NCBI RefSeq assembly: GCF_943372955.1
Contig: NZ_CALSAL010000006.1
Coordinates: forward strand, 11,888-75,887
DNA length: 64,000 nt
Direction of reading: 5' to 3'
Source of the DNA: Polaromonas sp. YR568
Lineage (GTDB): Bacteria; Pseudomonadota; Gammaproteobacteria; Burkholderiales; Burkholderiaceae_C
Part shown: positions 13,888 to 47,888 of the stretch, one piece after another
Layout: every line of letters starts with the position of its first letter
Numbering within the stretch: the first letter of the stretch is position 1
Program-made: the position numbers and the translations under genes
Notes under the pieces: generated by a model
The model's database searches: none
Seen by the model: only the letters and a program-made list of their open reading frames with translations
Told to the model about the DNA's origin: nothing

Positions 13888-13894
13888 AGATCAA

Positions 13895-14113: not shown

Positions 14114-14120
14114 ATATCTG

Positions 14121-14795: not shown

Positions 14796-14976
14796 GGCTG
14801 TCTCCAGAGATCGGTTCGCTGCGGGTTGGGGTCTGTTAACGCATCTCGCAAAAATAGCGCTAATAGGCCCTAGCAGGAACACGGTATTGCTTGTCCGTCA
14901 AATTCTAGGCCTTTGCTCCGAGTGTTTACTTCGGGTCTTTGCTTGAGGTCTTTACGCTCTGACCGCCTGATGCGCA

Positions 14977-15588: not shown

Positions 15589-15670
15589 GCTGTGATTAAA
15601 AGCAGATGGCTGGAGAACCAGAAGAAGTAACCACAACTGTTTCAAATCGTTGATTTTCAAGGAGTTTTTC

Positions 15671-16807: not shown

Positions 16808-16835
16808 TCTGTGTTGAGCTGAGCGCGTTTGAGCC

Positions 16836-19905: not shown

Positions 19906-19922
19906 GCCCAGGAGAACACAGC

Positions 19923-20819
19923 ATGTCCATCTACATCAACAAAAACACCAAAGTCATCACCCAGGGCATCACCGGCAAGACGGGTCAGTTCCACACCCGC
20001 ATGTGCCGTGATTACGCCAACGGCAAGAACGCCTTTGTGGCCGGCGTGAACCCCAAGAAAGCCGGCGAAGACTTCGAAGGCATCCCGATTTACGCCAACG
20101 TGACCGAGGCCGCCAAGGCCACCGGCGCAACGGTGTCCGTCATCTATGTTCCACCCGCAGGCGCTGCCGCCGCGATCTGGGAAGCCGTCGAGGCCGACCT
20201 CGACCTGGCGATCTGCATCACCGAAGGCATTCCCGTCAAGGACATGCTGGAAGTGCGCAACCGCATGAAGGCCAAGGAAGCCGCCGGTGGCAAGAAAACC
20301 CTGCTGCTCGGCCCTAACTGCCCCGGCCTGATCACGCCGGAAGAAATCAAGATCGGCATCATGCCCGGCCACATCCACCGCAAGGGCCGCATTGGCGTGG
20401 TGTCGCGCTCTGGCACGCTCACCTATGAAGCCGTGGCGCAACTGACCGAAATCGGCTTGGGCCAGTCCAGCGCCGTCGGTATCGGTGGCGACCCGATTAA
20501 TGGTCTCAAGCACATCGACGTGATGAAGGCCTTCAACGACGACCCCGACACCGACGCCGTCATCATGATTGGCGAAATCGGTGGCCCGGACGAGGCAGAA
20601 GCCGCCCAGTGGTGCAAGGCCAACATGAAGAAGCCCATCGTTGGCTTCATCGCCGGCGTGACCGCCCCGGCTGGCAAGCGCATGGGCCATGCCGGTGCGC
20701 TGATCTCCGGCGGTGCCGACACGGCCGACGCCAAACTGGCCATCATGGAAGCCTGCGGGTTTACCGTGACGCGCAACCCGTCCGAAATGGGCAAACTGCT
20801 CAAAGCGCTGCTGAAATAA
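19923..20819 (+). CDS. sucD: succinate--CoA ligase subunit alpha
   Basis: ORF 19716..20819 trimmed to ATG 19923 (AGGAGA upstream). [21 protein letters not shown]; phosphohistidine loop [11 protein letters not shown]. Confidence 0.95.
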
Positions 20820-20913: not shown

Positions 20914-21615
20914 ATGGAAGAGTTTATGACCGCAAGCTTCTGGCTTGCCGTTGGTCAGATCATCATGATCGACATCCTGCTGGGTGGCGACAACGCGGTG
21001 GTGATCGCACTGGCATGCCGGAACCTGCCCCCCAAACAGCGCCGGCTGGGCATCATTTACGGTACCGCTGGCGCCATCGTTCTCCGGGTGATCCTGATTG
21101 CCTTTGCGCTGGCACTGCTGTCCGTCCCGTACCTCAAGATCGTGGGTGCCATCCTGCTGCTCTGGATTGGTGTCAAGCTGATGATTCCCGAGGACGAGGG
21201 CGACCACAACATCAGCCCCAGCGATAAGCTCTGGGGCGCCGTGAAGACGGTCATCGTCGCCGACCTCGTGATGAGCGTCGACAACGTGCTGGCGATTGCC
21301 GGTGCCGCCCAGGGTGCAGGGCAGCAGCATCAGCTGCCGCTGGTCATCTTCGGTCTGGTGGTGAGCATTCCCATCATCGTCTGGGGCAGCCAGATCGTGC
21401 TCAAGCTGATGGAGCGTTTCCCGATCATCATCACGCTCGGCGCGATGCTGCTGGGCTGGATCGCCGGCCAGATGGCTTACAGCGACCCGGCCATCAAGCC
21501 TTATCTGCCCGCTTTCGCCTATGGCGGTTATCTGGCGGCCGCCGCCGGTGCCTTGCTGGTGCTGGTGATTGCCAAGGCGCTGCAAATGCGCCAGAAAAGC
21601 TCCACCCCGGCCTGA
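20914..21615 (+). CDS. TerC/YjbE family integral membrane protein
   Basis: GGDNAVVIALA and MSVDNVLAIAGAA signature repeats; multiple TM helices. Confidence 0.85.
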   Translation: MEEFMTASFWLAVGQIIMIDILLGGDNAVVIALACRNLPPKQRRLGIIYGTAGAIVLRVILIAFALALLSVPYLKIVGAILLLWIGVKLMIPEDEGDHNISPSDKLWGAVKTVIVADLVMSVDNVLAIAGAAQGAGQQHQLPLVIFGLVVSIPIIVWGSQIVLKLMERFPIIITLGAMLLGWIAGQMAYSDPAIKPYLPAFAYGGYLAAAAGALLVLVIAKALQMRQKSSTPA

Positions 21616-21930: not shown

Positions 21931-24654
21931 GTGGCCAAATCATCAGCAAAGTGGAATCAGTTCTGGCGGGCCGACTGGTTCGTCGGCTTTCTGGTGGTGC
22001 TGGCCGTTCTGGTGTTCCATGGCGCCACCGATTTCTTCAGCACGCTGGAACGCCGCTATTACGACTTCGCGAGCACCAGCACCTCACGCCAGCCGTCTGA
22101 TCGCATCGCCATCATCGCGATTGACGACCAGAGCATTGCCAACATCGGCCGCTGGCCGTGGCCGCGCGACGTACATGCCCAGCTGATCGACCAGCTGGCC
22201 GCCGCCAAGGCCAAGACCATCGTCCACACTGCCTTCTTTTTTGAGCCGCAGACCGACCGTGGGCTGGTGTTCATCCGCAAGATCAAGGAGGCGCTTGGCC
22301 CCGTGGCCCCGGCTTCGCCAGCCCCGGCGCCCGCATCATCCGCAGACGCTGCAGCGGTGTCGGCTTCGCCCGATTTGACCGCGCCCCCGCCGGGGGGGCT
22401 GGCCGAGCAGCTGGGCAAGGTCATTGCCGATGCCGAGGTGGCCCTGGACACCGATGCCAAACTGGCCAGCAGCATGAAGGCTGCCGGCAATGTGCTGGTG
22501 CCTTCTGTTTTCACCTTGGGTGAACCCCAGGGTCGGCCCGACAGCCCGCTGCCCGCCTTCGCCCTGAAAACCGCGGTCGACGAGACGGCCGGTTTCTCCC
22601 TCTCGGCCGTTCGCGGCCAGCAACCCATCGAGCTGATCGGTTCGGCCGCTGCGGGCGTGGCCCACCTCAACCAGCTGCCAGACGTCGACGGCGCGGTGCG
22701 CCAGGAGCCGCTGCTGATCAACTACTACGGCAAGGCCATCCCCTCGATGAGCCTGCTGGCGGCGGCGCACAGCCTGAATCTGGGCGCGGCCGACATCCGG
22801 CTCAACACCGGCGAGTCGGTGCAGATCGGCAAGAAGGTGGTCCGCACCGACGAAGCCGCCCTGATGCTGCCGCAGTTCTACCGGGGCCACGATGGGCGTG
22901 CGGCCTTCGCGGTGGACTCCTTTTACGACGTCGCTTCAGGCAAGATTCCGGCCAGCAAGTACGCCGACAAGATCGTGATCATTGGCGCCACGGCGGCCGG
23001 TGTGGGCACCCAGTTCGCAACGCCTGCCGGGGCGGGTTTGTCGCCAGCCGAAACCATGGCGCACATCACCTCCAGCATCCTGAGCGAGCATTTCATCGTG
23101 CAGCCGGGCTGGGGCGTCTGGGCCATGCTCGGCGCCTTTTTGCTGGTGGCGGGTTATCTGGTGGCCGGTCTGCCGCGACTTTCCGCCGGCAAGGCTGCGG
23201 TCGTCACGCTGGGTCTCTTTGTGGGGTTGCTTGTGCTGGAGTTCGGCCTGCTCTCGGCCGCGGCGACCTGGCTCAAGCTGGTGTTCCCTGCCGCCCTGCT
23301 GGTGATCGGGCATCTGGCGCTGACCACCAAACGCTTCCTGGTCACTGAGGCGGGCAAGCAGAAATCCGACGAGGAATCGGCCGAAACCAATCGCATGATG
23401 GGGCTGGCGCTGCAGGGGCAGGGGCAGCTGGACATGGCGTTCGACCGCTTCCGCCGCGTGCCGTTCACCGATGCGCTGATGGACAACATGAACAACCTGG
23501 CGCTGGACTTCGAGCGCAAGCGTCAGTTCAACAAGGCGCAAGCCGTGTACGAGTACATGGCCACCTACAACAAGAACCACAAGGACCTGCAATCCAAGCT
23601 GAACCGGGCCAAGAACCTGTCCGAGACGGTGATTCTGGGCGGCGGCAGCAGCCACCCGGGTGGCACGCTGCTGCTCGACGGAGGCGCTGTCGAAAAACCC
23701 ATGCTGGGCCGCTACCAGGTTGAAAAAGAACTGGGCAAGGGCGCCATGGGCGTGGTGTATCTGGGCAAAGACCCCAAGATCGGCCGCGTGGTCGCCATCA
23801 AGACCATGGCGCTGAGCCAGGAGTTCGAAGGCGAGGAGCTGGACGATGCTCGCGAGCGCTTCTTCCGCGAGGCCGAAACCGCAGGCCGGCTGCAGCACCA
23901 GAACATCGTCACCATTTTTGATGCCGGCGAAGAGCACGATCTGGCCTACATCGCCATGGAGTTCCTGAAGGGCAAGGACCTCGCCGATGTGACCCGCGAC
24001 GGCCATCTGCTGCCGATGCCGCAGGTCCTGTCCATCGTCGCCCGGGTGGCCGAGGCGCTGGCCTACGCCCACAAGCAGAATGTGGTGCACCGCGACATCA
24101 AGCCGGCCAACATCATGTACGAGCCGTCCACGGACACCGTCAAGGTCACCGACTTCGGCATCGCCCGCATCACCGACTCCAGCAAGACCAAAACCGGTCT
24201 GGTACTGGGCACGCCCAGCTTCATGTCGCCGGAGCAGATTGCCGGCAAGAAGGTCGATGGCCGCTCCGACCTGTATTCGCTGGGCGTGATGCTCTACCAG
24301 ATGCTGACCGGCGTGTTGCCCTTCCGGGGGGATTCGATGGCCGAGTTGATGTACAAGATTGCCAATGAAGAGGCGCCCGACATCCGCATCGTCCGCAAGG
24401 ACCTTCCCGACGCACTGGCGCAGATCGTGGCCCTGTGCCTCACCAAAAAGCCCGAACAGCGTTACCAGGACGGCGATCAGCTCGGCGCCGACTTGCGGGC
24501 CGTGATCGCTACGCTGGCGCCGTCCGGCGCATCCGCGGTCCACGCGGCACCGGCCGCCCCCGGCGCTGCAGGTGCCGCAACCCCGGCAGAAACCCCGTCG
24601 TTCGAGAGAACCGTCACCACCCAGGCGCCTGCCGCCGGGGCCGATCCACACTGA
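21931..24654 (+). CDS. CHASE2 sensor domain-containing Hanks-type serine/threonine protein kinase
   Basis: GTG start. CHASE2 hallmark IAIIAIDDQSIANIGRWPWPRDVHAQLIDQL. TM helices around residues 395-470, a helical linker, and a kinase domain (GAMGVVYLG, VAIK, HRDIKPANIM, DFGIAR, GTPSFMSPEQ). Confidence 0.85.
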   Translation: MAKSSAKWNQFWRADWFVGFLVVLAVLVFHGATDFFSTLERRYYDFASTSTSRQPSDRIAIIAIDDQSIANIGRWPWPRDVHAQLIDQLAAAKAKTIVHTAFFFEPQTDRGLVFIRKIKEALGPVAPASPAPAPASSADAAAVSASPDLTAPPPGGLAEQLGKVIADAEVALDTDAKLASSMKAAGNVLVPSVFTLGEPQGRPDSPLPAFALKTAVDETAGFSLSAVRGQQPIELIGSAAAGVAHLNQLPDVDGAVRQEPLLINYYGKAIPSMSLLAAAHSLNLGAADIRLNTGESVQIGKKVVRTDEAALMLPQFYRGHDGRAAFAVDSFYDVASGKIPASKYADKIVIIGATAAGVGTQFATPAGAGLSPAETMAHITSSILSEHFIVQPGWGVWAMLGAFLLVAGYLVAGLPRLSAGKAAVVTLGLFVGLLVLEFGLLSAAATWLKLVFPAALLVIGHLALTTKRFLVTEAGKQKSDEESAETNRMMGLALQGQGQLDMAFDRFRRVPFTDALMDNMNNLALDFERKRQFNKAQAVYEYMATYNKNHKDLQSKLNRAKNLSETVILGGGSSHPGGTLLLDGGAVEKPMLGRYQVEKELGKGAMGVVYLGKDPKIGRVVAIKTMALSQEFEGEELDDARERFFREAETAGRLQHQNIVTIFDAGEEHDLAYIAMEFLKGKDLADVTRDGHLLPMPQVLSIVARVAEALAYAHKQNVVHRDIKPANIMYEPSTDTVKVTDFGIARITDSSKTKTGLVLGTPSFMSPEQIAGKKVDGRSDLYSLGVMLYQMLTGVLPFRGDSMAELMYKIANEEAPDIRIVRKDLPDALAQIVALCLTKKPEQRYQDGDQLGADLRAVIATLAPSGASAVHAAPAAPGAAGAATPAETPSFERTVTTQAPAAGADPH

Positions 24655-24665: not shown

Positions 24666-25451
24666 ATGATTTACGAGATTTGCACGGAAACCGACCCAGG
24701 CCTGACGCGGGACAACAACGAAGACGCTGTCGCATTCGACTCCCTGACCCGACTGTGCATCCTGGCCGACGGCATGGGTGGCTACAACGCAGGCGAGATC
24801 GCCAGCGGTATGGCGGTCGCTTTTATCAAGTCGGAAATGGGCCGCTGGCTGGCCCAGGCGGGCCGCAACGCGAACTCCCGCGAGGTGCGGCGGGCGCTCG
24901 AGATCTGTGTCGAGAACGCCAACCACTCGATCTTCAATGCCGCCAACTCCAACCCGCAGTACGCTGGCATGGGCACCACGCTGGTGGTGGGCGCGTTCCA
25001 GGACGGGCGGCTGACGCTGGGCCACATCGGCGACTCCCGTTGTTACCGTCTGCGTGCCGGCGTGTTCGAGCAGATCACCAAAGACCACTCCCTGCTGCAG
25101 GAGCAGATCGATGCCGGCCTGATCACGCCGGAACAGGCACTGACGTCCCTGAACCGTAACCTGGTGACCCGGGCACTGGGGGTCGAAGACACCGTGATGG
25201 TGGAAGTCAACGAGCACCGGGTGGAGACCGGTGATGTGTATCTGATGTGCTCGGACGGCTTGTCCGACATGGTGCCTGATGACGGCATAGCTGCCATACT
25301 CCGGGGCGAGGGAACCCTGGCGCAGCGGGCCCGCCAGATGATCGTGGCCGCCAATCAGGCGGGAGGGCGCGATAATATTTCGGTCCTGCTGGCCGAAGCA
25401 CGCGAAGACGCGGGCAAGCGGGGGTTCTTCTCCAGAATACTGGGAAAATGA
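24666..25451 (+). CDS. PP2C-family (Stp-type) serine/threonine protein phosphatase
   Basis: ORF 24435..25451 trimmed to ATG 24666, 11 nt after the kinase stop. TRDNNEDAV, LADGMGGY, MCSDGLSD, GGRDNISV. Confidence 0.85.
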   Translation: MIYEICTETDPGLTRDNNEDAVAFDSLTRLCILADGMGGYNAGEIASGMAVAFIKSEMGRWLAQAGRNANSREVRRALEICVENANHSIFNAANSNPQYAGMGTTLVVGAFQDGRLTLGHIGDSRCYRLRAGVFEQITKDHSLLQEQIDAGLITPEQALTSLNRNLVTRALGVEDTVMVEVNEHRVETGDVYLMCSDGLSDMVPDDGIAAILRGEGTLAQRARQMIVAANQAGGRDNISVLLAEAREDAGKRGFFSRILGK

Positions 25452-25490: not shown

Positions 25491-26147
25491 ATGCCGAAAA
25501 TGATCGTCTCTATCGACGGTGTCGTGATCAAGGAAGTGCAGCTGACCAAGGACAGGACCTCCCTGGGCCGCCGGCCTTACAACGACATCGTGATCGACAA
25601 CCTGGCCGTCAGTGGTGAGCATGCCGTGCTGCAGATGGCAGGCAATGAAGTGCACCTGGAAGACCTCAACAGTACCAACGGCACCTATGTGAACGGCAAG
25701 GCCGTCAAGAAGCAGCTGCTGCAGCACGACGACACCGTCGAAATCGGCAAATACAAGATCAAGTACGTCAGCGAGAACGCCGCTGCCGGGTTCGACAAGA
25801 CCATGGTCATCAAGGCCGGCTCCGGCGGGTTGGTGGCGCCGGCTGCTGCGGCACCAGCCGCCGCCGCGAGCGACCCGATCATGGGCATGAACGGCGCGAT
25901 CAAGGTCATGTCTGGCGCAGCCGCCGGGCGCGAGGTGGCGCTTGTGAAAGTGGTGACCACCATTGGCAAACCTGGCGTGGCGGTCGCCGCCATCACCAAG
26001 CGGCCACAGGGCTTTGTGGTGGCCCATGTGGAAGGCGCCGGCAAACCGACGCTCAACGGCGCGCCCATCGGCCCCGAACCGGTATCGCTCAAGAACGGCG
26101 ACATGCTCGAACTGGCCGGAACCCGAATGCAGTTCGTGCAGCACTGA
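25491..26147 (+). CDS. tandem FHA domain-containing protein (canonical N-terminal FHA, degenerate C-terminal FHA-like module)
   Basis: GGAG upstream of the ATG. LGRRPYNDIVIDNLAVSGEHAVL...STNGTYVNG. The second module, IGKPGVAVAAI...TLNGAPI, lacks GR and SxxH. Confidence 0.8.
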   Translation: MPKMIVSIDGVVIKEVQLTKDRTSLGRRPYNDIVIDNLAVSGEHAVLQMAGNEVHLEDLNSTNGTYVNGKAVKKQLLQHDDTVEIGKYKIKYVSENAAAGFDKTMVIKAGSGGLVAPAAAAPAAAASDPIMGMNGAIKVMSGAAAGREVALVKVVTTIGKPGVAVAAITKRPQGFVVAHVEGAGKPTLNGAPIGPEPVSLKNGDMLELAGTRMQFVQH

Positions 26148-26206: not shown

Positions 26207-28453
26207 ATGAGACTTCTCTCCAGGCACTGGCCGCGCATCGCCGTCACACTGATTCCGCTGGTTTTTGCGCTGATGCACGCGGCTGGCGTGCTGCACGTCG
26301 GCGTGCTGGAGCGCCTGGACAACATCATCTACGACGCGCGCCTGCGGGCCACCATGCCCGGCACGCTGGACGACCGTATCGTCATTGTTGATATCGACGA
26401 GCAGAGCCTGGCCGAGATCGGACGCTGGCCCTGGAGCCGCAACAAGGTGGCCGATCTGGTCGATGAGCTTCATGGCCGGCAGCGCGCGGCGCTGATCGGT
26501 TTTGACGTCGTGTTCGCCGAGCCGGACGACAGCTCCGGCCTCAAGCAGCTCAGGCAACTGGCCCAGGCCGAGCTCAAGGACCAGCCTGGCTTCGCCGAGA
26601 AACTCAATCAGCTGCAGGGCAGCCTCGACTACGACGCGCTGCTGGCCAAAGCCATTTCACAGCGTCCGGTGGTGCTGGGCTATTACTTCACCAGCGACCG
26701 CGATGGCCGGGTGAACGGCCACCTGCCGGCGCCAGTGATGCAGAAGGAAGCGCTGGCCGGGCGGCCGATCCGCTTCACGGTGTGGAATGGCTACGGCGCC
26801 AACATCGAGCAGCTGGGCAAGGCCGCACCCTTGGGCGGCTTTTTCAACTCCATCACCGATGGCGACGGCGTGGTGCGGTCGCTTCCGCTGGTGGCGGAGT
26901 TCAAGGGCCAGTATTACGAATCGCTGTCGCTGGCCATGTTCCGCATGCTCGCAGGAATGCCCAAGGTCGAGCCCGGGTTCCCGCCGCAGAAACTGCTCAC
27001 CCGCGGCTACCACGGGCTGGAGAGCATCCTGCTGACGCAGGACGGCAAACAACTGGCGATTCCGGTCGATGACCGGGTTGCGACGCTGGTGCCCTTCCGG
27101 GGAAATGGAGGCGTCAAGGGCGGCTCCTTCAAGTACATCCCGGCAGCCGATCTGATTGCCCGTCGCCTGCCGCCAGAGACGCTGAAGGACAAGATTGTGC
27201 TGGTTGGCACCACTGCCCCCGGTTTGCTCGACCTGCGGGTGACGCCAGTCGGCGAGACCTACCCCGGCGTCGAAACGCACGCCAACGTGATCTCGGGCCT
27301 GCTCGACGGCAAGACCTTGGTCCGACCGGATTACGCGATGGGTTTCGAGCTGGTTGTGCTGCTGTTGTCCGGCCTGGTTCTCGCGTTCACCTTGCCCCTG
27401 CTGTCGGCCCTGCGGGCGGTTCTGGCAAGCGCGGCCGTGATTGCGGCGCTGGCGGGCTTGAACTTCTGGCTCTATGCCGGCTACGGGCTGGTGTTGCCGC
27501 TGGCGGGCGCGCTGGTGATGGCGGTGACGGCGTTTGCGCTGAACATGAGCTACGGCTACTTCGTGGAAAGCCGCTCCAAACGGGAGCTGGCCCACCTGTT
27601 CGGGACCTACGTGCCCCCCGAACTGGTCGACGAAATGGTGAAGGACCCGGACAGCTACTCGATGAAGGCCACGTCCAAGGAGCTGACGGTGATGTTCTGC
27701 GACATGCGCGGCTTCACCAAGATGTCAGAAACCATGGATCCCACCCAGCTGCAGGCGCTTCTCAACAGCGTGTTCAGCCAGTTGACCGGGGTGATCCGCG
27801 CCCACCGGGGCACCATCGACAAATACATGGGCGACTGCGTGATGGCATTCTGGGGCGCCCCGGTTGAAACCCCCGGACACGCCAGCCTCGCGGTGAAGGC
27901 GGCACTCGGCATGTCGGCCATCGTGCGCCAGATCAACATCGACCACCGCAGCAAGGGCTTGCCCGAGATCGGCATCGGCATCGGCCTGAACACCGGCACC
28001 ATGTGCGTGGGCGACATGGGCTCGGACATCCGCCGCAGCTACACCGTGATCGGCGATGCGGTGAACCTGGGCTCGCGCCTGGAGGGCCTGTCCAAAATCT
28101 ACGGGGTCGACATCATCGTCAGCGAGTCCACCCGCAAGCTGGCCGGCGACTTTGTCTGGCAAGAGCTGGACAAAGTGCGCGTGAAGGGCAAAGATCACGC
28201 AGTGGCGATTTTCTGGCCGCTGGCGGTGGCCCAGCCGACCGGCGACGATGCGCTGGAGCTCAAGACCTGGAGCCTGGCCCTGAAGGCCTACCGCACGCAG
28301 GATTGGGAGGCATGCGATCTGCATCTGCTGAACCTGCAGAAGATGAATGGTGAAAAGTACCTCTACCGCCTGTACGCAGAGCGTGTAGCCTCGATGCGGT
28401 TGCTGCCTTTCGATCCCGGCTGGGATGGCGCAACCAATTTTGAAACGAAGTAA
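26207..28453 (+). CDS. CHASE2 sensor domain-containing class III adenylate cyclase
   Basis: IVIVDIDEQSLAEIGRWPWSRNKVADLVDEL, 3 TM helices, and a cyclase domain (TVMFCDMRGFT, IDKYMGDCVMAFWGAP, SYTVIGDAVNLGSRLE). The Lys/Thr specificity pair suggests ATP as substrate. Confidence 0.88.
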   Translation: MRLLSRHWPRIAVTLIPLVFALMHAAGVLHVGVLERLDNIIYDARLRATMPGTLDDRIVIVDIDEQSLAEIGRWPWSRNKVADLVDELHGRQRAALIGFDVVFAEPDDSSGLKQLRQLAQAELKDQPGFAEKLNQLQGSLDYDALLAKAISQRPVVLGYYFTSDRDGRVNGHLPAPVMQKEALAGRPIRFTVWNGYGANIEQLGKAAPLGGFFNSITDGDGVVRSLPLVAEFKGQYYESLSLAMFRMLAGMPKVEPGFPPQKLLTRGYHGLESILLTQDGKQLAIPVDDRVATLVPFRGNGGVKGGSFKYIPAADLIARRLPPETLKDKIVLVGTTAPGLLDLRVTPVGETYPGVETHANVISGLLDGKTLVRPDYAMGFELVVLLLSGLVLAFTLPLLSALRAVLASAAVIAALAGLNFWLYAGYGLVLPLAGALVMAVTAFALNMSYGYFVESRSKRELAHLFGTYVPPELVDEMVKDPDSYSMKATSKELTVMFCDMRGFTKMSETMDPTQLQALLNSVFSQLTGVIRAHRGTIDKYMGDCVMAFWGAPVETPGHASLAVKAALGMSAIVRQINIDHRSKGLPEIGIGIGLNTGTMCVGDMGSDIRRSYTVIGDAVNLGSRLEGLSKIYGVDIIVSESTRKLAGDFVWQELDKVRVKGKDHAVAIFWPLAVAQPTGDDALELKTWSLALKAYRTQDWEACDLHLLNLQKMNGEKYLYRLYAERVASMRLLPFDPGWDGATNFETK

Positions 28454-28488: not shown

Positions 28489-29280
28489 ATGAAAGTACGC
28501 GTACTCGGCTGTTCAGGCGCCATTGCCAGGGACTGCCGCACCACGTCTTTTCTGCTGGACGACAACCTGCTCGTCGATGCCGGCACCGGCGTGGGAGACC
28601 TCACGCTCGACGAGATGGCCGCCGTCGATCACGTGCTGCTGACCCATTCCCACCTCGACCACGTCGCCGCCCTGCCCCTGATGGTGGACGCGATCGCCTC
28701 GCGCCGAACCCGGCCGGTGCAGATCCATGCCCTGCAGGGCACGATTGACGCGCTGAAGGCGCACATCTTCAACAACACCATCTGGCCCGACTTCTCGCGC
28801 ATTCCGACGCCGGAAGCGCCCTTCATCAGCTTTCATCCGCTGGAGCTGGGGCAGACGCTGGTGCTGGGCGGCAAGCCGGTGGAGGTGCTGCCGGCGGTCC
28901 ACACCGTGCCGGCGGTGGGCTATGCGATTGGTGGTCGCAAGGGCTGCTGGGTGTTCACGGGTGACACCGAGGAAAACCCGGCGCTCTGGAAGCGCATCAA
29001 CCAGCTTGACGTGGCGATGCTGGTGATCGAGACCGCCTTCAGCAACCGCGAGCGGGAGCTGGCCAAGCTGAGTCTTCACCTCTCGCCCAAAGTACTGGCC
29101 ACTGAACTGGACTGCATCGCCCGCGACAAGAACTATCCGATCTACATCACCCACACCAAGCCCGCCGAGACCGAATTGATCATGGCGGAAATCCAGGGTT
29201 TCGACCAGACTCGCCCAATGGGCCCCAATGTCACACACGATATCCGCTGGTTGAGAGCGGGTCAGGAGTTCGAACTATGA
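28489..29280 (+). CDS. class II 3',5'-cyclic-nucleotide phosphodiesterase (MBL fold, CpdP/PDE1-like)
   Basis: MKVRVLGCSG...SFLLDDNLLVDAGTG...HVLLTHSHLDHVAAL matches the HxHLDH class II signature. The stop overlaps the next ATG. Confidence 0.75.
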   Translation: MKVRVLGCSGAIARDCRTTSFLLDDNLLVDAGTGVGDLTLDEMAAVDHVLLTHSHLDHVAALPLMVDAIASRRTRPVQIHALQGTIDALKAHIFNNTIWPDFSRIPTPEAPFISFHPLELGQTLVLGGKPVEVLPAVHTVPAVGYAIGGRKGCWVFTGDTEENPALWKRINQLDVAMLVIETAFSNRERELAKLSLHLSPKVLATELDCIARDKNYPIYITHTKPAETELIMAEIQGFDQTRPMGPNVTHDIRWLRAGQEFEL

Positions 29281-31682
29281 CTGCTGTTATGCAACGCGAT
29301 CCCCAGGACGCGTTCTTTGACTCCCAGATGCTGCCGCCGCAGGAGCGCGGCGTCACCTTCGAGGCGCTGTACTTCAGACAGCTGCAGCTGGTCACCAACC
29401 GCATCTATGAAACCGAGAACATCGACCAGATCATGCTCGATGCCAGCCAGGACATCTGCAAGCTGTTCAATGCAGACCGGCTGACGCTCTATGCGGTCAA
29501 TGAAGACCGCAGCTCCATCACCTCCAAGGTCAAGACCGGTCTGAACACCAGCAAGGACCTGAAGCTGCCCATCAGCCCCCAGAGCATCGCCGGCTATGTG
29601 GCGATGTCGCGGGCCATGGTCAACATCGCTGACGTGTACGACGACGCGGCGCTCAAGAAAATCCATCCAGCGCTCAGCTTTCTCAAGGAAGTGGACAAGC
29701 GTTCCGGCTACCGCACCAAGCAGATGCTGGTGGCGCCGGTGATGGACGGCGACACGCTCTACGGCGTGCTGCAGGTCATCAACAACCGCAGCGATCAGCC
29801 CTTCGGCAAGCTGGAGGAAGACGGCGCCAGTCAGTTGTGCAAGACGCTGGGCATTGCGATCCGCCAGCGCATGCAGAAGGCCGACGAGCAGCAGCGGCGC
29901 AAGGCGACGAAATACGACGGACTGGTGACTGCAGGCGTGCTGACCCAGAGCGATCTGCAGGAGTGTGTGCAGGAGGCCCGCGAGGGCGGCAAGTCCGTCG
30001 AGCACATCCTGATGGGCAAGTACAGCATCCGCCCGGCACAGATCGGCGCCTCGCTGTCGCGCTTTTTTGGCGTGACCTACGAGCCGTTCAATCCAGGACG
30101 CATCCGCTCCGAGGTACTGCATGGCCCCCTCAAGCGCGATTTCATCGAGCAGCAGGGCTGGATGCCGCTGGAAGACACGCCAGAGGGCCTGCTCATCATG
30201 TGCCTGGACCCCGAGGCGGTACGCGGTGCGCGGGTGGTGCCGCAGGTGTTTCCCCGCACGGCCAAGTTCGCCTACCGGGTGACCACGCAGACCGAGTTCG
30301 AGGAAACGCTGGGCCAGCTGTTTGGCTTGGCCGGTGAAGGCAGCTCCATCGACCAGTTGCTGGCTGACATGGATTCACCGCTGGACGGCGACTCCGGAGA
30401 TGATTCGCTGCTGGAGTCGGCCGCAGCCGACAACGAGCTGGTGAAGTTCGTCAACAAGGTCATCATCGACGCCTACAACCAGAAGGTCTCGGACATCCAC
30501 ATCGAGCCGATGCCCGGCAAGGCCAAGACCGGCATCCGCTTCCGCATCGACGGCACGCTGCAGCCCTACATCGAAGTGCCGGCACAGTTTCGGCAGGCCA
30601 TGGTGACACGGCTGAAGATCATGTGCGACCTCGACATTTCCGAAAAGCGCAAGCCGCAGGACGGAAAGATCAAGTTCAAGAAATACGGTCCGCTGGACAT
30701 TGAGCTACGGGTCGCCACCATTCCGTCAGCAGGCGGTGTGGAAGACGTGGTGATGCGGATTCTGGCCGCTGGCGAACCCATCCCGCTGGAAAAACTCGGC
30801 CTGACCGACCACAACAAGGACCGGCTGGAAAAGACCGTGTCCAAGCCCTACGGCCTGTTCTACGTGTGCGGCCCCACCGGTTCGGGCAAGACGACCACGC
30901 TGCACTCCATCCTGAAATTCCTCAACACGCCCGACACCAAGATCTGGACCGCCGAGGACCCGGTGGAGATCACGCAGAAAGGCCTGCGCCAGGTTCAGGT
31001 CAACAAGAAGGCGGGCATTGACTTCGCGCTGGTGATGCGCGCCTTCCTGCGTGCCGACCCCGACATCATCATGGTCGGCGAGTCACGCGACAAGGAAACC
31101 GTGTCGATGGGCGTGGAGGCCTCGCTCACCGGCCACATGGTGTTCTCCACGCTGCACACCAATTCGGCGCCTGAGTCCATCACCCGGCTGCTGGACATGG
31201 GCATGGACCCGTTCAATTTTGCCGACGCCCTGCTGGGTATCCTTGCGCAACGGCTGGCCAAAAAGCTGTGCGATTGCAAGGAGTCGTATGTGGCCAGCTC
31301 GCAGGAGATCAAGGACTTCATCAAGGAGTACTCCGAAGAACTCCGCAACACCGAGGCCTGGAAGGCCGACCCGGGTGGCGAGGCGCAGCAGCTGCTCGAC
31401 GACTGGATGACGCGCTATGGCAAGGACGGCGGCCTCAAGCTGTACCGGGCTGTCGGCTGCGACAAGTGCAACAAGACCGGCTACAAGGGCCGTATCGGCC
31501 TGCACGAGCTGATGATCGCCGACGACCAGCTCAAAAAGCTGATCCAGGAGCGCGCCCGCGTCGCCGAACTGTTTGCCAGCGCCCTCAGCAGCGGCATGCG
31601 GACACTGAAAATGGACGGCATGGAAAAAGTGCTGATGGGTCTGACCGACCTGAAGATGGTGCGGTCGGTGTGTATCAAGTAA
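29277..31682 (+). CDS. GAF domain-containing GspE/PilB-family secretion/pilus ATPase
   Basis: N-terminal GAF (residues ~35-197), a T2SSE_N-like region, Walker A GPTGSGKTTT, Asp/His boxes, and a partial Cys motif (CDC...CDKC). 801 aa versus ~570 for a typical PilB. Confidence 0.85.
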   Translation: MTAVMQRDPQDAFFDSQMLPPQERGVTFEALYFRQLQLVTNRIYETENIDQIMLDASQDICKLFNADRLTLYAVNEDRSSITSKVKTGLNTSKDLKLPISPQSIAGYVAMSRAMVNIADVYDDAALKKIHPALSFLKEVDKRSGYRTKQMLVAPVMDGDTLYGVLQVINNRSDQPFGKLEEDGASQLCKTLGIAIRQRMQKADEQQRRKATKYDGLVTAGVLTQSDLQECVQEAREGGKSVEHILMGKYSIRPAQIGASLSRFFGVTYEPFNPGRIRSEVLHGPLKRDFIEQQGWMPLEDTPEGLLIMCLDPEAVRGARVVPQVFPRTAKFAYRVTTQTEFEETLGQLFGLAGEGSSIDQLLADMDSPLDGDSGDDSLLESAAADNELVKFVNKVIIDAYNQKVSDIHIEPMPGKAKTGIRFRIDGTLQPYIEVPAQFRQAMVTRLKIMCDLDISEKRKPQDGKIKFKKYGPLDIELRVATIPSAGGVEDVVMRILAAGEPIPLEKLGLTDHNKDRLEKTVSKPYGLFYVCGPTGSGKTTTLHSILKFLNTPDTKIWTAEDPVEITQKGLRQVQVNKKAGIDFALVMRAFLRADPDIIMVGESRDKETVSMGVEASLTGHMVFSTLHTNSAPESITRLLDMGMDPFNFADALLGILAQRLAKKLCDCKESYVASSQEIKDFIKEYSEELRNTEAWKADPGGEAQQLLDDWMTRYGKDGGLKLYRAVGCDKCNKTGYKGRIGLHELMIADDQLKKLIQERARVAELFASALSSGMRTLKMDGMEKVLMGLTDLKMVRSVCIK

Positions 31683-32500: not shown

Positions 32501-34648
32501 TCAAGTCCTCGGGGCGTTCGTGGTCTGGCACCAGTCTTTCCAGACGGTGCGCAGGGCTGCTTCAAGATGCCTTGCAAAACGTGGTGCGTCGAAGAGGGGT
32601 GACTCCAGTACCTGCTTTCGCAAGCCAGCCCGCAGCACCGCCAGGCGCGGCAGGTTGTTTGCGTGTGTGATCGCCCGCTGCAGGTAGTCTTCCGGGTCGT
32701 TGGCCACCCAGTCCGGCAATCCGGCGTTCATCATCATGCCCACCCCCTGACGCGAGAGAAAGCTGCTTCCTGCCAGCGTCAGAACCGGCACACCCATCCA
32801 CAAAGCCTCTGCTGTGGTGGTGCCTCCCGTGTATGGAAACGGGTCGAGGGCGAGGTCAACCTTGCGGTAGGTGGCCAGGTAGTCTGCGCGCGGCACAGCG
32901 CCTTGCAGAATAAGGCGTCCAGACTCGATGCCGTGCGCTGCATAACGTGCGACCACGGTGGCCCGCGCCGCACTGTCGCCGAGCTGCGGTGCCATCAGGT
33001 GCAGGCGGCTCTGTGGAACGGCGTGCAGCACCCGTGCCCACAAAGCGACCACGGCATCATTCATTTTGGGCAAGGCATTGAAGCAGGCAAACGTGACATA
33101 ACCGTTGCGTAGCGCGGGCAGTGAGATGACGTTCAGATCCAGATTGGGAGCCGTGAAGCAAAGCCGCGTTTCCGGCAGGCGCAGGATTTTCTCGGTGAAG
33201 TGCCCCTCCAGCGTGGGGGGCAGTGTCCAGGGATCCGCAATCAGATAGTCCATGGCCGGCACACCCGTGGTCGCGAAATAACCCAGCCAGCTGATTTGCA
33301 CCGGCGCAGGCTTTCGTGCGAACACAGGCAGACGGTTCTTTCCGGTGTGTCCAGAGAGGTCGATCAGGATGTCGATGGCGTCGTCACGGATGCGCTGATC
33401 CATGGCTTCGTCGGTCATGCCGACCACAGAATGCCAGCCCCCGGCAAAGTGGCGCTTGAGCCGTTCAGTGACCTCGTCTGCGCTGGTGGCGTTGGCGTAA
33501 GCAAACAGGGTCAGGCGACGGGTGGCCTCGGCGGAAAGTGCCGCGAGGACGTTCTCGATGAAATAGCCGACGGGATGCGAGCGCAGGTCGGCTGAGACAA
33601 AACCGACCCGCAGGGTCCGCTCTGGGTCCGGGCGGTTTTGCAGGGCGGCGGAGGCAGGCGCGAGCCGGGTCACCGTGGCCCCAAAGCGTTTGGCCTCTTC
33701 CAGCAACTCATCCTGCGAGTGACTGGCCAGCAGGTGCTGGATCAACAGCAGATTGCTGTGGGCGACTGAAAAGTCAGGCCGGATGGCCAGTGCGCGACGG
33801 TAGTTCGCCAGCGCCTCTTCCAGCTGTCCCAAATCCTTGAATGCAGACCCAAGGTTGGTGTACACGCCCGCATTGTTGGGTTCCATCTCCAGTACCCACC
33901 TGTAGCTGGCTACCGCGTCGTTGAACAGCTGCAAGGCCATGCAGACATCGCCCAGGCTGCAATGCGCATCCACAAAACCGGGTCGGAGTTCTGTTGCCCG
34001 ACGAAAGCTGCTGGCGGCATCATGGAGGCGACCCAAGTACCACAACACCATTCCGCGCTCGTAGAGCAGGTCCACATCATCGGGCGCGCATGCCAGCGCG
34101 TCGCCGTACGCCTGCGCAAGCGCCTCATGCTGTCCCAGCCGTTTCAAAGCGTCAATCAGCTTGGCGTGCGTGTCCATGTCGCCAGGGCTGGCTTTCAGGG
34201 CACGGCGATAGCTCTCAACAGCGTCTTCATGTTGCCCCAGTGCTTCCAGCTCCGAGCCCATGGCGATGGCAGCTTCTGCGAACTCGGGTCGAAGCGCCAG
34301 TGCCTGGCCATAGGCTGCGAGGGCCGCTTCATGGTTGTCCAGGCGCGCGTGCGCTGCACCGATGTTGAAGTGCGCACCGGCCGAGTCGGGCTTGTAGTGA
34401 ACGGCTGTGTGCAGCGCCTGCAAGGCTGCCTGCGCTTCACCGCGATCGAGCAGCAGGGTACCCCGGTTGAAATGGGCCCGCGCCAGTTCAGGCATCAGTG
34501 CAATTGCCGAGTCATAGCACTGTAAGGCGGCATCGGTTTGACCCCGCTTTTCCAATGCCATGCCCTGTTCAAGCAGCTGTTCTACGGTGGGTTCTGTTGC
34601 AGACACCGCCTGCCTGCTGATCGTGGGTGACGTGTCGTTGGTTTCCAT
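32501..34648 (-). CDS. TPR repeat + GT41 (OGT/SPINDLY-like) glycosyltransferase, paralogue 1
   Basis: About 9-10 TPRs, then LRVGFVSADLRSHPVGYF, IDLSGHTGKNRLPVFARKPAPVQISWLGYFATTG, CFNALPKMNDAVVALWARVL, ALDPFPYTGGTTTAEALWMGVPVLTL. Confidence 0.8.
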   Translation of the reverse strand: METNDTSPTISRQAVSATEPTVEQLLEQGMALEKRGQTDAALQCYDSAIALMPELARAHFNRGTLLLDRGEAQAALQALHTAVHYKPDSAGAHFNIGAAHARLDNHEAALAAYGQALALRPEFAEAAIAMGSELEALGQHEDAVESYRRALKASPGDMDTHAKLIDALKRLGQHEALAQAYGDALACAPDDVDLLYERGMVLWYLGRLHDAASSFRRATELRPGFVDAHCSLGDVCMALQLFNDAVASYRWVLEMEPNNAGVYTNLGSAFKDLGQLEEALANYRRALAIRPDFSVAHSNLLLIQHLLASHSQDELLEEAKRFGATVTRLAPASAALQNRPDPERTLRVGFVSADLRSHPVGYFIENVLAALSAEATRRLTLFAYANATSADEVTERLKRHFAGGWHSVVGMTDEAMDQRIRDDAIDILIDLSGHTGKNRLPVFARKPAPVQISWLGYFATTGVPAMDYLIADPWTLPPTLEGHFTEKILRLPETRLCFTAPNLDLNVISLPALRNGYVTFACFNALPKMNDAVVALWARVLHAVPQSRLHLMAPQLGDSAARATVVARYAAHGIESGRLILQGAVPRADYLATYRKVDLALDPFPYTGGTTTAEALWMGVPVLTLAGSSFLSRQGVGMMMNAGLPDWVANDPEDYLQRAITHANNLPRLAVLRAGLRKQVLESPLFDAPRFARHLEAALRTVWKDWCQTTNAPRT

Positions 34649-34660
34649 GGCTTGCGGAGG

Positions 34661-36853
34661 TCAGTGGTCTTCGGGGTATGCAGCTGCGCGGCTGCCGGGA
34701 TGTTGTTCGCACCATTGTTGCCAGACGTTTCGCAGCGCGGCTTCAAAATGCCGGGCAAATCTCGGGGCATCAAATACAGGCGAGGCCAGCACCTGCGAGC
34801 GTAAACCTGCACGCAGCCGCGCCAGCGCCGGCAGATTGCTTGCATGGGCAATCGCCCGCTGCACGTAATCGTCTTCGCTGTCAGCGATCCATTCCGGGAG
34901 ACCTGCGTTCATCAGGAATCCGACGCCTTGCCGCGAAAGAAAAGTAGTGCCCGCCAGGGTCAGGACAGGCACACCCATCCAGAGCGCTTCTACCGTGGTC
35001 GTACCGCCCGTATAGGGAAAGGGATCAAGTGCAATGTCCACCTGCTGATAGGTTGCCAGATACTGATCACGCGGGACAGGGCCGCGAATGATGAGCCGTG
35101 CTGTCGGGATGCCGTGTGCGCCGAAGCGTCTGAGCGTTTCGTCCCGGGTCGAGGGCTCGCTCAGCTGGGGCGCCATCAGATGCAGGCGACTGCCCGGTAC
35201 CCCTTTGAGAACGCGCGCCCAGAGGGCTACCACCGCGTCGTTCATCTTCGGCAACGCATTGAAGCAGGCGAACGTCAGGTACCCGTTGACTGCGGCAGGC
35301 AATGGGGTGACTTTCACTTCGAGGGTGGGTGCGGTGAAGCAAAGGCGGGTTTCCGGCAGGCGCAGGATTTTCTCCGTGAACTGGTTTTCGAGCGCCTCTG
35401 GCAGCGTCCACGGGTCGGCAATCAGGTAGTCGATGGCCTGCACACCCGTGGTGGCGAAGTAACCCAGCCAGCTGATCTGTACAGGCGCGGCCCGGCGTGC
35501 AAACACGGGCAGGCGGTTGCCACCGGTGTGGCCGGACAGGTCGATCAGGATGTCGATCTGGTCGTTCCGGATGCGGTCCACGAGGGACGTATCCGAGTCG
35601 TCTGCAACGCAGTGCCAGCCCTTGAGGTGAGACTGGATCCGCGCCGTCACGGTATCAGTCGCTAGCGTGTTGGAGTAGGCAAACATCTCCAGACGCCCCG
35701 ACGCCTGCGTCGCCAGCGCTGCCAGCACACCCTCCACAAAGTAGCCCACCGGGTGTGCACAGAGGTCGGCAGACACCATGCCGACGCGCAGACATCGGTC
35801 TCTGACGGGGCTGTTCTTCCACGCTGCCGATGTGGGCGGAGGTGTCGGTTGGGCTGCAAGCGCCAGCCTCGACACGGTTTCACCAAAGCGGCGTGCCTCG
35901 GCCAGCAGCTCATGCGGCGGCTGTGCTGAAAGGTAGTTTTGCACCATCAAGAGGTTGCTGTGCGCGACTGCCAGTTGGGGGTTGAGTTCCATGGCCGTGC
36001 GGTAGCTGGCCAGGGCCTTGTCCAGCTGCCCGAGGTCCTTGAACGTGGTTCCCAGGTTGTTGTGTGCATCAGCGCTCTGGGGGTTGAGCTCCAGCACCCG
36101 GCGGTAGCTTTCGGCTGCATCCTTGAACTGGTGCAAATCCATCAGTGCGTTGCCCAGATTGCCATGTGCGGCCAGGAAATCGGGCTTGATTTGAATGGCC
36201 AGGCGGAATTGACGCACCGCGTCCTGCAATTGCCCGCGAAGCGTGAGGATCAATCCCAGGCTGTTGAGTGCATCAACTTGGTGTGGGTTTCTTGCCAGGA
36301 TCTGGCGAAAGCACACTGCGGCCTCGTCAAAGCGGTCCAGTCGAACCAGAAGATGGGCGAGCTTGTTCTGGGCCTCGGCATGGTTTTCCTCCAGAACCAG
36401 GGCGCGGCGATACGCTGCGATGGCCTGCTCGTTCTGCCCCAGTTCTTCCAGGCTTGCCGCAAGTGCCACTTCAGCCTCCGCAAAATCCGGCTTGAGCGCG
36501 AGCGAGTACCGATAAGCTGCGATCGCCTCTTCGTGACGGCCCAGCCGCGTATAGGCGGCACCCAGATTGAAATGGGCACCTGCCGAATCCGGCTTGTATC
36601 GCAGCGCCTCCCGAAAAGCCAGAAGTGCGTCTGCCGCATCACCGCGATCCAGCAGGATGGTTCCGCGCAGAAAATGTGCGCGCGCCAGTGTCGGTATCAG
36701 GCGCAAGGCGGCTTCGTAATGTTGCAGCGCGTCGTCTGGCTGGCCCTGCTGTTCAAGTGCCAGGCCCTGCTCGAGCAGACCCGCTGCCGTTGCCTCCTGG
36801 CCCGGATCGGCGCTTGCGGACAAGGGGTTGGCAACTGGCATCACATTCCTCAA
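34661..36853 (-). CDS. TPR repeat + GT41 (OGT/SPINDLY-like) glycosyltransferase, paralogue 2
   Basis: Same architecture and blocks as paralogue 1. The TTG start at 36853 overlaps the upstream stop; GTG 36844 or ATG 36841 are alternatives. Confidence 0.8.
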   Translation of the reverse strand: MRNVMPVANPLSASADPGQEATAAGLLEQGLALEQQGQPDDALQHYEAALRLIPTLARAHFLRGTILLDRGDAADALLAFREALRYKPDSAGAHFNLGAAYTRLGRHEEAIAAYRYSLALKPDFAEAEVALAASLEELGQNEQAIAAYRRALVLEENHAEAQNKLAHLLVRLDRFDEAAVCFRQILARNPHQVDALNSLGLILTLRGQLQDAVRQFRLAIQIKPDFLAAHGNLGNALMDLHQFKDAAESYRRVLELNPQSADAHNNLGTTFKDLGQLDKALASYRTAMELNPQLAVAHSNLLMVQNYLSAQPPHELLAEARRFGETVSRLALAAQPTPPPTSAAWKNSPVRDRCLRVGMVSADLCAHPVGYFVEGVLAALATQASGRLEMFAYSNTLATDTVTARIQSHLKGWHCVADDSDTSLVDRIRNDQIDILIDLSGHTGGNRLPVFARRAAPVQISWLGYFATTGVQAIDYLIADPWTLPEALENQFTEKILRLPETRLCFTAPTLEVKVTPLPAAVNGYLTFACFNALPKMNDAVVALWARVLKGVPGSRLHLMAPQLSEPSTRDETLRRFGAHGIPTARLIIRGPVPRDQYLATYQQVDIALDPFPYTGGTTTVEALWMGVPVLTLAGTTFLSRQGVGFLMNAGLPEWIADSEDDYVQRAIAHASNLPALARLRAGLRSQVLASPVFDAPRFARHFEAALRNVWQQWCEQHPGSRAAAYPEDH

Positions 36854-39670: not shown

Positions 39671-40329
<659 letters not shown>

Positions 40330-40347: not shown

Positions 40348-40380
40348 AGCCCCTTGGCGAAGGCCAAGGGGCTTTTTCTT
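40348..40380 (+). terminator. strong rho-independent terminator after pilA
   Basis: Perfect 11-bp stem AGCCCCTTGGC/GCCAAGGGGCT, GAAG loop, then TTTTTCTTTTC. Confidence 0.8.
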
Positions 40381-40395
40381 TTCTGCTTCACCACC

Positions 40396-42312: not shown

Positions 42313-42332
42313 GCTCATCGGCCCATTCAACC

Positions 42333-43220: not shown

Positions 43221-43261
43221 CGCGGTGCCTGAGCCAACCCGGTATCGGGGTTTCCTGCTCC

Positions 43262-46879: not shown

Positions 46880-46913
46880 AGGTGGGGAGTATGCGGGAGT
46901 TTCTTTCTGTGAT

Positions 46914-46949: not shown

Positions 46950-46952
46950 GGC

Positions 46953-47885: not shown

Positions 47886-47888
47886 GCG

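Follow-up and report, generated by a model that had tools for sequence, protein, structure and literature searches.

A cyclic-nucleotide-type GAF domain on a PilB/GspE-type motor ATPase of Polaromonas, a candidate cAMP receptor at the end of a signalling operon

In a 64,000-nucleotide stretch of DNA from Polaromonas sp. YR568 (contig NZ_CALSAL010000006.1; called the window below, with its own numbering used throughout), we studied the gene at 29277..31682 on the plus strand, which starts with ATG, encodes an ATPase of 801 amino acids and is the sixth and last gene of a signalling operon. This ATPase carries a GAF domain of the cyclic nucleoside monophosphate (cNMP) clade ahead of a degenerate MshEN module and a complete T2SSE motor, and its operon also encodes an adenylyl-type cyclase and a class-II-type, predicted cyclic-nucleotide phosphodiesterase. 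We consider it probable that the GAF domain senses cyclic AMP (cAMP) on a PilB/GspE-type motor and acts as the output of the cAMP circuit of its own operon, switching type IV pilus extension. The operon context is the strongest support for cAMP; the GAF domain itself, the loss of the cyclic di-GMP (c-di-GMP) motif and the conservation of the cluster and of a nearby pilin gene are the other lines of evidence.

A GAF domain of the cyclic-nucleotide clade and a degenerate MshEN module

A Polaromonas sp. YR568 protein annotated as 'GspE/PulE family protein' matches the ATPase at 100% identity, and more than 120 orthologues, at 87-99% identity, were found in Polaromonas genomes and metagenomes. Pfam placed a GAF domain at residues 49-195 (E-value 4e-11, 44 bits, cut-off 22.4), MshEN at residues 265-353 (5e-7, 30 bits, cut-off 23.1) and T2SSE (PF00437) at residues 384-795 (1.2e-113, 380 bits, cut-off 24.9). 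A first-pass annotation, made from the sequence alone, had described the gene as a GspE/PilB-family ATPase with an N-terminal GAF domain followed by a T2SSE_N-like region, and had called for a domain scan with hidden Markov models; the scan assigned the N-terminus to GAF and bore out the whole layout. The NCBIfam equivalog models gave 463.1 bits for PilB (TIGR02538, cut-off 675.65), 433.6 bits for GspE (TIGR02533, cut-off 630.25) and 394 bits for TfpB (cut-off 850). Since all three cut-offs were missed, the ATPase appears to form a separate clade of the type II/IV secretion ATPase superfamily and to be neither PilB nor GspE proper.

The GAF domain with its flanking helices covers residues 26-209 (29352..29903, plus strand) and was delimited by Pfam, AlphaFold2, Foldseek and phmmer. 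When residues 25-215 were compared by phmmer with all Protein Data Bank (PDB) sequences, the top match was Anabaena CyaB2 (1YKD, a cAMP-bound tandem GAF; E-value 1.3e-24), followed by the GAF-B domain of PDE2A, the GAF domain of the HD-GYP enzyme PmGH (4MCW), PDE10A GAF-B, PDE6 and PDE5 GAF-A, while the GAF domain of PtsP reached an E-value of only 0.037. An AlphaFold2 model of residues 1-385, built on 60 diverse homologues, had a mean predicted local distance difference test score (pLDDT) of 82, with most of the GAF region at 80-94. It shows a helix (26-45), a sheet (66-170) and an unbroken long exit helix (178-209) that runs into a four-helix plus alpha/beta MshEN-like module. Foldseek searches of the PDB with this model returned PmGH (4MCW), PDE5A, CyaB2, PDE6C, PDE2A, PDE10A and the cAMP-bound GAF domain of Lcd1, a Leptospira diguanylate cyclase (5W10), each with a probability of 1.0. 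The structure prediction that the first-pass annotation had also proposed thus gave a GAF fold whose top matches are of the cNMP type, and sequence and fold searches converged on the same set of relatives, in line with the cyclic-nucleotide type that it had assigned.

Residues of the ligand pocket agree with this placement. In CyaB2, T293, I308, D356 and N359 have been discussed as ligand-contacting (PMC4411481), and they align with T70, V85, D140 and S143 of the ATPase. T70, D140 and T147 are near-invariant over 263 rows of the family alignment. Orthologues differ less in the GAF region than in the MshEN region, with identities of 91% vs 77% in locus L001 and of 71% vs 57% in locus L002. We conclude from sequence and model that the GAF domain is a functional member of the cNMP clade, and predict that it binds a cyclic nucleotide.

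The NKFDE motif of cNMP-binding GAF domains is usually written with variable spacing. The corresponding segment of the ATPase, NNRSDQPFGKLEE, lies at residues 169-181 (29781..29819, plus strand) and aligned to the LVNKK..F and NK..FSKFDE stretches of CyaB2 and PDE2A. Ungapped alignments with these two proteins and within the family set the register as N169 for Asn, N170 for Lys, F176 for Phe, E180 for Asp and E181 for Glu, with R171 one residue past the Lys column. The first-pass annotation had located the NKFDE-like string correctly; its assignment of the motif to N170 and R171 was one residue off the homology register. Counted over the 263 rows, all from outside Polaromonas, the Asn is retained in 259 and the Phe in 258; Lys or Arg stands at 170 or 171 in 240, and Asp or Glu at 180 in only 132. 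The commonest betaproteobacterial form is NNK...F...AE. R171 may compensate for the replacement of Lys by Asn170, and the pocket residues appear more telling than the motif for assignment to the cNMP clade. According to PMC11977230, the motif makes no contact with the ligand, yet its mutation lowers binding in PDE2 and PDE5.

The MshEN module was examined as a possible c-di-GMP receptor. Wang et al. 2016 (PMC5013675) described c-di-GMP-binding MshEN as two 24-residue repeats of the form RLGxx(L/V/I)(L/V/I)xxG(L/V/I)(L/V/I)xxxxLxxxLxxQ, with a relaxed version, [RKPN]hGxxhhxx[GAS]hhxxxxhxxxhxx[QNKRYWST]. The two-repeat MshEN_N segment of the ATPase (residues 211-263; 29907..30065, plus strand) was compared with this motif by eye, the first repeat being anchored on G220. 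Repeat I (211-234, TKYDGLVTAGVLTQSDLQECVQEA) retains the hydrophobic core and violates the relaxed motif at positions 1, 2, 3 and 24; repeat II (240-263, SVEHILMGKYSIRPAQIGASLSRF) violates it at positions 1, 3, 10, 11 and 24. The lost positions are those of the Arg, Gly and Gln residues that contact c-di-GMP. The NCBIfam c-di-GMP_motif model scored 17 bits against a cut-off of 38, and the degenerate start of the segment, [KR]-[YF]-D-x-L-[VL], is common to the whole family. The alpha/beta subdomain that follows (residues 265-353; 30069..30335, plus strand) is recognised by Pfam and modelled with a pLDDT of ~90. The MshEN fold is retained and its c-di-GMP site is degenerate, in agreement with the earlier view that the motif is not intact.

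The signalling operon and the spread of the family

The six genes of the operon all lie on the plus strand. Gene 1 (21931..24654) encodes a CHASE2 sensor fused to a Ser/Thr kinase, 907 amino acids long (Pfam CHASE2, E-value 8.5e-50; Pkinase, 6.4e-58). It is followed by a PP2C-type Ser/Thr phosphatase (24666..25451; PP2C_2, 1.5e-13), whose start we took as the ATG at 24666, 11 nucleotides past the kinase stop, from the sequence and from where tblastn matches begin, and by a 218-residue protein with a phosphothreonine-binding FHA domain (25491..26147; FHA, 3.4e-23). Gene 4 (26207..28453) encodes a CHASE2-class III nucleotidyl cyclase (Pfam CHASE2 and Guanylate_cyc), predicted to be an adenylyl cyclase of class IIIb with the Lys/Thr pair, and gene 5 (28489..29280) a 263-residue class-II-type cyclic-nucleotide phosphodiesterase of metallo-beta-lactamase fold (PDEase_II and Lactamase_B_2). 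The gaps between successive genes are 11, 39, 59 and 35 nucleotides, and the last two genes overlap by 4. At this overlap, as the first-pass annotation had noticed, the ATG of the ATPase gene (29277-29279) falls on the TGA of the phosphodiesterase gene (29278-29280) in the sequence ...CTATGACT..., and the two genes are predicted to be translationally coupled. No promoter-like site turned up when 21.5-32.6 kb was scanned, and the terminator-like sites there were weak and intragenic only.

The cyclase has the residues of a class III adenylyl cyclase. Its sequence contains FCDMRGFT, DKYMGD and SYTVIGDAVNLGSRLE, with both metal-binding Asp (FCDMRGFT and DKYMGD), the substrate Lys, Thr as the second specificity residue (SYTVIGD), and the transition-state Asn and Arg (VNLGSRLE). 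Over the stretches TIDKFVGD and YTIIG...NLASRLE of the PDB chain 3R5G, deposited as CyaB, every residue of the motifs can be aligned. The two specificity positions are K and T in 3R5G, vs E and G in the chain of 2W01. The product of the cyclase is accordingly predicted to be cAMP. As for the phosphodiesterase, PDEase_II scored 50.5 bits (cut-off 23.7), although the match spans only ~60 residues around the HSHLDH signature, which corresponds to HxHLDH of class II enzymes. Its sole PDB relative is 4OJV, 3',5'-cyclic-nucleotide phosphodiesterase 1 (E-value 2.2e-7), and the NCBIfam equivalog for cyclic-nucleotide phosphodiesterase gave 33.9 bits vs 400. Since the cyclase and the phosphodiesterase lie directly upstream of the ATPase in the operon, cAMP would be the likeliest ligand of the GAF domain; with such tight spacing, a writer, an eraser and a candidate reader of cAMP would thus be co-transcribed. 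The earlier proposal that cAMP or cGMP is a likelier GAF ligand than c-di-GMP fits all of this, namely the degenerate MshEN repeats, the cNMP-type GAF domain and the adenylyl-type cyclase and phosphodiesterase upstream.

The genes upstream of the operon are core genes. A two-component sensor kinase and response regulator, recA-recX and sucC-sucD occupy blocks at 12412-14882 (minus strand), 15650-17348 (plus) and 18745-20819 (plus); a TerC-family membrane protein follows at 20914-21615, and the signalling operon starts directly after. Further upstream, a bacterial-type DNA topoisomerase of 989 amino acids (8529-11498, plus strand) has a Topoisom_bac domain, two Toprim_Crpt repeats and a C-terminal SWIB/MDM2 domain. 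SWIB is better known as a domain of eukaryotic chromatin proteins and of chlamydial TopA.

The first-pass annotation had regarded a GAF domain fused to this ATPase family as unusual, and had suggested surveying such fusions and their surroundings. Its judgement of rarity did not hold. Residues 1-380 were searched against 1.84 billion representatives at E<=1e-30, and the fusion was found in at least 207 clusters at 50% identity. Many members are full-length proteins of 745-810 amino acids; others, of 940-1125 amino acids, have two or three GAF domains. Named sources added by a profile search are Ramlibacter, Rhodoferax, Rhodocyclaceae, Gallionella, Burkholderiales, Desulfobacterales, Thermodesulfobacteriota and Rokubacteria; Betaproteobacteria, Desulfobacterota, Nitrospirota and Myxococcota are among the groups that have full-length members. 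For the neighbourhoods, we scanned one genome per species with Walker A and Walker B patterns taken from the full-length family alignment. As these patterns also caught ordinary PilB and GspE, only matches starting before ~residue 40 were counted as family. GAF loci obtained in this way come from Polaromonas, Propionivibrio, Pseudoduganella rivuli, Massilia sp. Bi118 and Gallionellaceae among Betaproteobacteria, and from Desulfobacteraceae, Smithella, Nitrospira and Polyangiales outside them.

The cluster recurs in Betaproteobacteria. By tblastn, genes upstream of the ATPase in the operon were found in a dozen other betaproteobacterial loci, at 33-75% identity. All five are present in loci L002, L003, L006, L016, L019, L025 and L044, and all but the phosphodiesterase in L007; in these loci the kinase is conserved at the head of the cluster, at 56-73% identity. 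Loci L009, L010, L011, L017 and L026 have a partial set. The FHA gene is also conserved in related clusters. The cyclase lies on the opposite strand in L005 and L008, as does the phosphodiesterase in L004. Two more kinds of signalling gene occur in related loci and are missing from the window. In 6 loci a gene for a CAP-type protein (cNMP_binding and Rhodanese) separates the phosphodiesterase gene from that of the ATPase, and in 14 a GAF+HD-GYP gene, of c-di-GMP phosphodiesterase type, adjoins the ATPase gene; the clusters with these two kinds of gene are those of L003 (8893-9975 and 12381-13979), L004-L009, L011, L016, L017, L019, L025, L026 and L044. The region is a cyclic-nucleotide signalling island in a wider betaproteobacterial group, and the GAF+HD-GYP neighbours hint at crosstalk from cAMP to c-di-GMP. 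The Nitrospira and Desulfobacterota loci had no conserved neighbours and contained genes for an RseP-like protease, ProS, MltC, an amidase and an enoyl-CoA hydratase instead. As the ATPase gene is an orphan among housekeeping genes in these groups, the operon account is limited to Betaproteobacteria.

The N-terminus varies within the clade. ATPases with the IWTAEDPVEITQ signature and a degenerate KFDYLL-type MshEN also occur with TPR-like N-termini, with none, or with two or three tandem GAF domains (loci L027, L033 and L035; L028, L032, L036, L037 and L045; proteins P0134, P0138, P0139, P0147, P0173 and P0183); the N-terminus is TPR-like or missing in the relatives from Nitrospira and Desulfobacterota. 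In P0139, Walker A is degenerate. A sister group, whose cores are 52-61% identical, has a different N-terminal domain of ~170 amino acids and canonical-looking MshEN repeats.

The motor core, the pilin gene and the downstream region

The T2SSE core (residues 384-795; 30426..31661, plus strand) is complete, as stated in the first-pass annotation. Walker A (GPTGSGKTT, residues 532-541, 30870-30899), the Asp box (WTAEDPVE, 557-564, 30945-30968), Walker B (DPDIIMVGESRD, 594-605, 31056-31091) and the His box (TGHMVFSTLHTN, 618-629, 31128-31163) are all intact, on the plus strand, and invariant in the family alignment. The closest PDB relatives of the core are Thermus PilF, the PilB proteins of Myxococcus and Geobacter, and Vibrio EpsE (GspE), and PilB models and structures score slightly above those of GspE.

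A zinc-finger-like tetracysteine subdomain lies within the core (31269..31469, plus strand), with one pair of Cys at 665 and 667 (CDC) and another at 728 and 731 (CDKC), separated by a spacer of 60 residues. The spacer of V. cholerae EpsE has ~30 residues, so that the one found here is about twice as long. Set against the CxxC...CxxC arrangement of PilB and GspE, the ATPase has all four Cys, with CxC for the first pair and a longer spacer. The four Cys are invariant across the family alignment. CxC at the first pair occurs only in Polaromonas and in the member P0127, the remaining members having CxxC; since distant members have CxxC, the Polaromonas branch would have undergone a deletion of one residue instead of having a partial motif. 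Thus, of the earlier description, the CDC and CDKC pairs and the ~60-residue insert stand, but the word 'partial' seems not to: the motif appears complete but atypical, and the long spacer a trait of the family.

A classic type IVa prepilin gene lies downstream, at 39865..40329 on the plus strand (Pfam Pilin and N_methyl; NCBIfam prepilin models). It carries the sole prepilin motif of the window, and its product has a leader and a terminal Cys pair. The motif (G-FTLIELMI) of homologous prepilin genes was found 0.2-6.3 kb downstream of the ATPase gene in 11 of 17 betaproteobacterial loci, directly following it in L001, L002 and L010, and in none of 10 loci from outside Betaproteobacteria. The pilin of the window is the probable substrate fibre of the ATPase motor.

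Between the ATPase and pilin genes lie three tandem paralogues on the minus strand (32501-39147; 715, 730 and 765 amino acids) that combine TPR repeats with an O-GlcNAc-transferase-like domain of family GT41. TPR-GT41 genes recur beside the ATPase or the pilin gene in L009, L011, L019, L026 and L044. After the pilin gene, 40354-42312 (plus strand) encodes a polytopic membrane protein of 652 amino acids with at least seven hydrophobic segments and a C-terminal TPR region; it matched TPR models only in Pfam and none in NCBIfam, and could be a pilin-modifying glycosyltransferase. The region at 42171-59759, on both strands, encodes glycosyltransferases of families GT2, GT1 and GT8, an epimerase, a capsule-synthesis domain and UDP-glucose/GDP-mannose dehydrogenase, and could be a polysaccharide or protein-glycosylation locus.

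Proposed mechanism, alternatives and relation to known systems

We propose the following course of events. MshEN, the ancestral c-di-GMP sensor of the motor, would have decayed, and a cNMP-type GAF domain would have been added ahead of it. The two CHASE2 membrane receptors, cyclase and kinase, would read an external cue through their periplasmic domains; the cyclase would raise cAMP upon the envelope cue and the class-II-type phosphodiesterase would remove it. cAMP would bind in the GAF pocket of the ATPase, and the signal, as in cyclases and phosphodiesterases under GAF control, would pass along helix 178-209 to the MshEN/N1 module and alter the assembly or activity of the hexamer. Extension by the motor of a type IV pilus assembled from the nearby pilin would in this way be switched on or off, with PilC and PilM-Q presumably encoded elsewhere. 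The CHASE2 kinase, the PP2C phosphatase and the FHA protein may form a second, phosphothreonine branch, in the manner of the gating of type VI secretion.

Several observations weigh against this mechanism and have to be set beside the rival explanations, the most serious of which concerns the ligand. The GAF domain might bind cGMP, another small molecule or nothing at all and serve mainly as a dimerisation or scaffold module for the hexamer, with the cyclase and the phosphodiesterase signalling to other receptors; we regard this as unlikely. The canonical NKFDE motif is indeed not intact. The ATPase has Asn170 in the Lys column and Glu in the Asp column, where many relatives from Betaproteobacteria have Ala. 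Papers cited in PMC11977230 report that mutants of the N, K or D of the motif in PDE2 and PDE5 had lowered or abolished cGMP binding. Strict N-K...F...D-E occurs in 28 of the 263 family rows only, so the motif taken alone is a weak argument. The specificity of a GAF domain is unreliable from sequence, the basis of selectivity being described as still unclear in PMC4411481, and the PDB description of the top structural match, the PmGH GAF domain (4MCW), notes no ligand. The gene neighbourhood also has its exceptions, since the cyclase is absent from inside the cluster of L017, no cyclase was found near the Desulfobacterota and Nitrospirota members, members outside Betaproteobacteria have no linked cyclase, and the separate CAP-type cNMP_binding protein of other loci could be the real cAMP receptor. 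Against a different ligand, the nearest sequence relatives of the GAF domain are cNMP binders, the residues at the CyaB2 ligand-contact positions are near-invariant, and the translational coupling to a cNMP phosphodiesterase and the presence of a cyclase with adenylyl-type residues are hard to account for otherwise; the Lys/Thr pair of the cyclase speaks against cGMP in particular.

Another possibility was that a cAMP-sensing ATPase drives a machine other than a type IVa pilus, either a type II secretion-like system or another type IV filament system with its genes elsewhere, or that it is a regulatory ATPase without a fibre. The missed PilB and GspE equivalog cut-offs point in this direction, as do the orphan state of the gene in Desulfobacterota and Nitrospira and the signatures peculiar to the family (IWTAEDPVEITQ and the long Cys spacer), by which it would seem to be a clade of its own. 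In the window, moreover, the pilin gene lies 8 kb from the ATPase gene, behind a methyltransferase gene and the three opposite-strand TPR-GT41 genes, and no PilC/GspF platform, PilM-Q alignment or secretin gene was found within the cluster, so the machine served is deduced only from the pilin neighbourhood. We nevertheless judge such a role to be quite unlikely, because a prepilin gene directly downstream in many betaproteobacterial loci is far above chance and because PilB and PilF score slightly better than GspE. A Pycsar-type anti-phage defence, in which a nucleotide made by the cyclase would activate an effector, was suggested by PADLOC matches of the cyclase domain to PycC models (best E-value 1.3e-29) and of the kinase domain to PD-T4-6 models. 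These matches are generic ones, at the level of class III cyclase and Hanks kinase domains. The specificity residues of the cyclase are of the purine type (Lys/Thr) and its receptor domain is CHASE2, the role of effector would fall to a pilus-type ATPase that no PADLOC model fits (E-value only 2.8e-4), and the cluster is syntenic with pilin genes across genera and does not lie in a variable island. With nothing beyond generic domain matches in its favour, we rejected this reading as extremely improbable.

Returning to a cAMP-sensing motor that extends a type IV pilus, we can ask what it would mean. So far, c-di-GMP is the main second messenger known to control pilus and secretion motors, either through MshEN or by way of PilZ and FimX. 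GAF domains that bind cAMP have been described on cyclases, on phosphodiesterases and on a diguanylate cyclase, and cAMP control of pili is known to act via transcription. If our proposal is true, a cAMP-binding domain on the motor would link an envelope receptor to the extension of pili both directly and fast. One operon would supply all that writes, erases and reads the signal, which makes the hypothesis directly testable, and the protein would be a clean natural example of a GAF sensor taking over from a decayed MshEN inside a single polypeptide. The family is large, with members in more than one phylum, among them Nitrospira, sulfate reducers and numerous Betaproteobacteria of soil and freshwater. 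A wider claim is advanced tentatively, with slightly less than even confidence: the family would be the first direct cAMP receptor among the motor ATPases of type II secretion systems and type IV pili, and in Betaproteobacteria it would be the output of a dedicated local cAMP circuit, made up of the CHASE2 cyclase, the class II phosphodiesterase and the CHASE2 kinase with PP2C and FHA, often joined by a CAP-type receptor and a GAF-HD-GYP enzyme; this circuit would post-translationally switch the extension of a specific, possibly glycosylated type IV pilus, replacing the c-di-GMP input of MshEN and, in many species, coupling cAMP to c-di-GMP breakdown. We found no description of a GAF-fused secretion ATPase in the full-text literature, a coverage that leaves out most subscription journals. 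A Ramlibacter genome paper mentioned three PilB paralogs and nothing more on the topic, and the MshEN paper (PMC5013675) does not mention GAF. The fusion is widespread, already recorded in databases under generic names, and apparently unstudied.

The closest known parallel on the motor side is the group of MshE/PilB-type c-di-GMP ATPases (V. cholerae MshE, P. aeruginosa PA14_29490; PMC5013675), which belong to the same superfamily and have a messenger sensor, of MshEN fold, N-terminal to the motor. In contrast to these, the ATPase described here has lost the c-di-GMP contacts in both repeats and has an extra GAF domain of cAMP/cGMP type ahead of MshEN, and its predicted messenger is cAMP, which would be made and degraded by enzymes of the same operon. 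On the sensor side, the closest sequence and fold relatives are the cNMP-binding GAF domains of Anabaena CyaB1 and CyaB2, of mammalian PDE2, PDE5, PDE6, PDE10 and PDE11 and of Lcd1 (5W10), with which the ATPase shares the pocket Thr, Asp and Thr, the long helix leading into the regulated domain, and the N, the F and the acidic pair of NKFDE. In those proteins the output is a cyclase, a phosphodiesterase or a GGDEF domain, whereas here it is a secretion/pilus ATPase; the GAF domain stands alone instead of in a tandem (two or three occur in some members of the family), and Asn replaces the NKFDE Lys, with Arg next to it.

In P. aeruginosa, cAMP controls type IV pili via CyaB-Vfr and Pil-Chp, and this control is transcriptional, through the CRP-family protein Vfr. 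The theme of cAMP and pili is common to both systems, and so is a class IIIb cyclase with the same Lys/Thr pair as 3R5G. The difference is that in the Polaromonas protein the motor and the receptor domain form one polypeptide, which would imply direct, post-translational control. Type VI secretion, for its part, is gated by a triad of Ser/Thr kinase, PP2C phosphatase and FHA protein, PpkA-PppA-Fha1. The operon of Polaromonas likewise encodes a kinase, PP2C and FHA triad beside a component of a secretion-type machine, and departs from that system in combining the triad with a cAMP module and a pilus-type ATPase.

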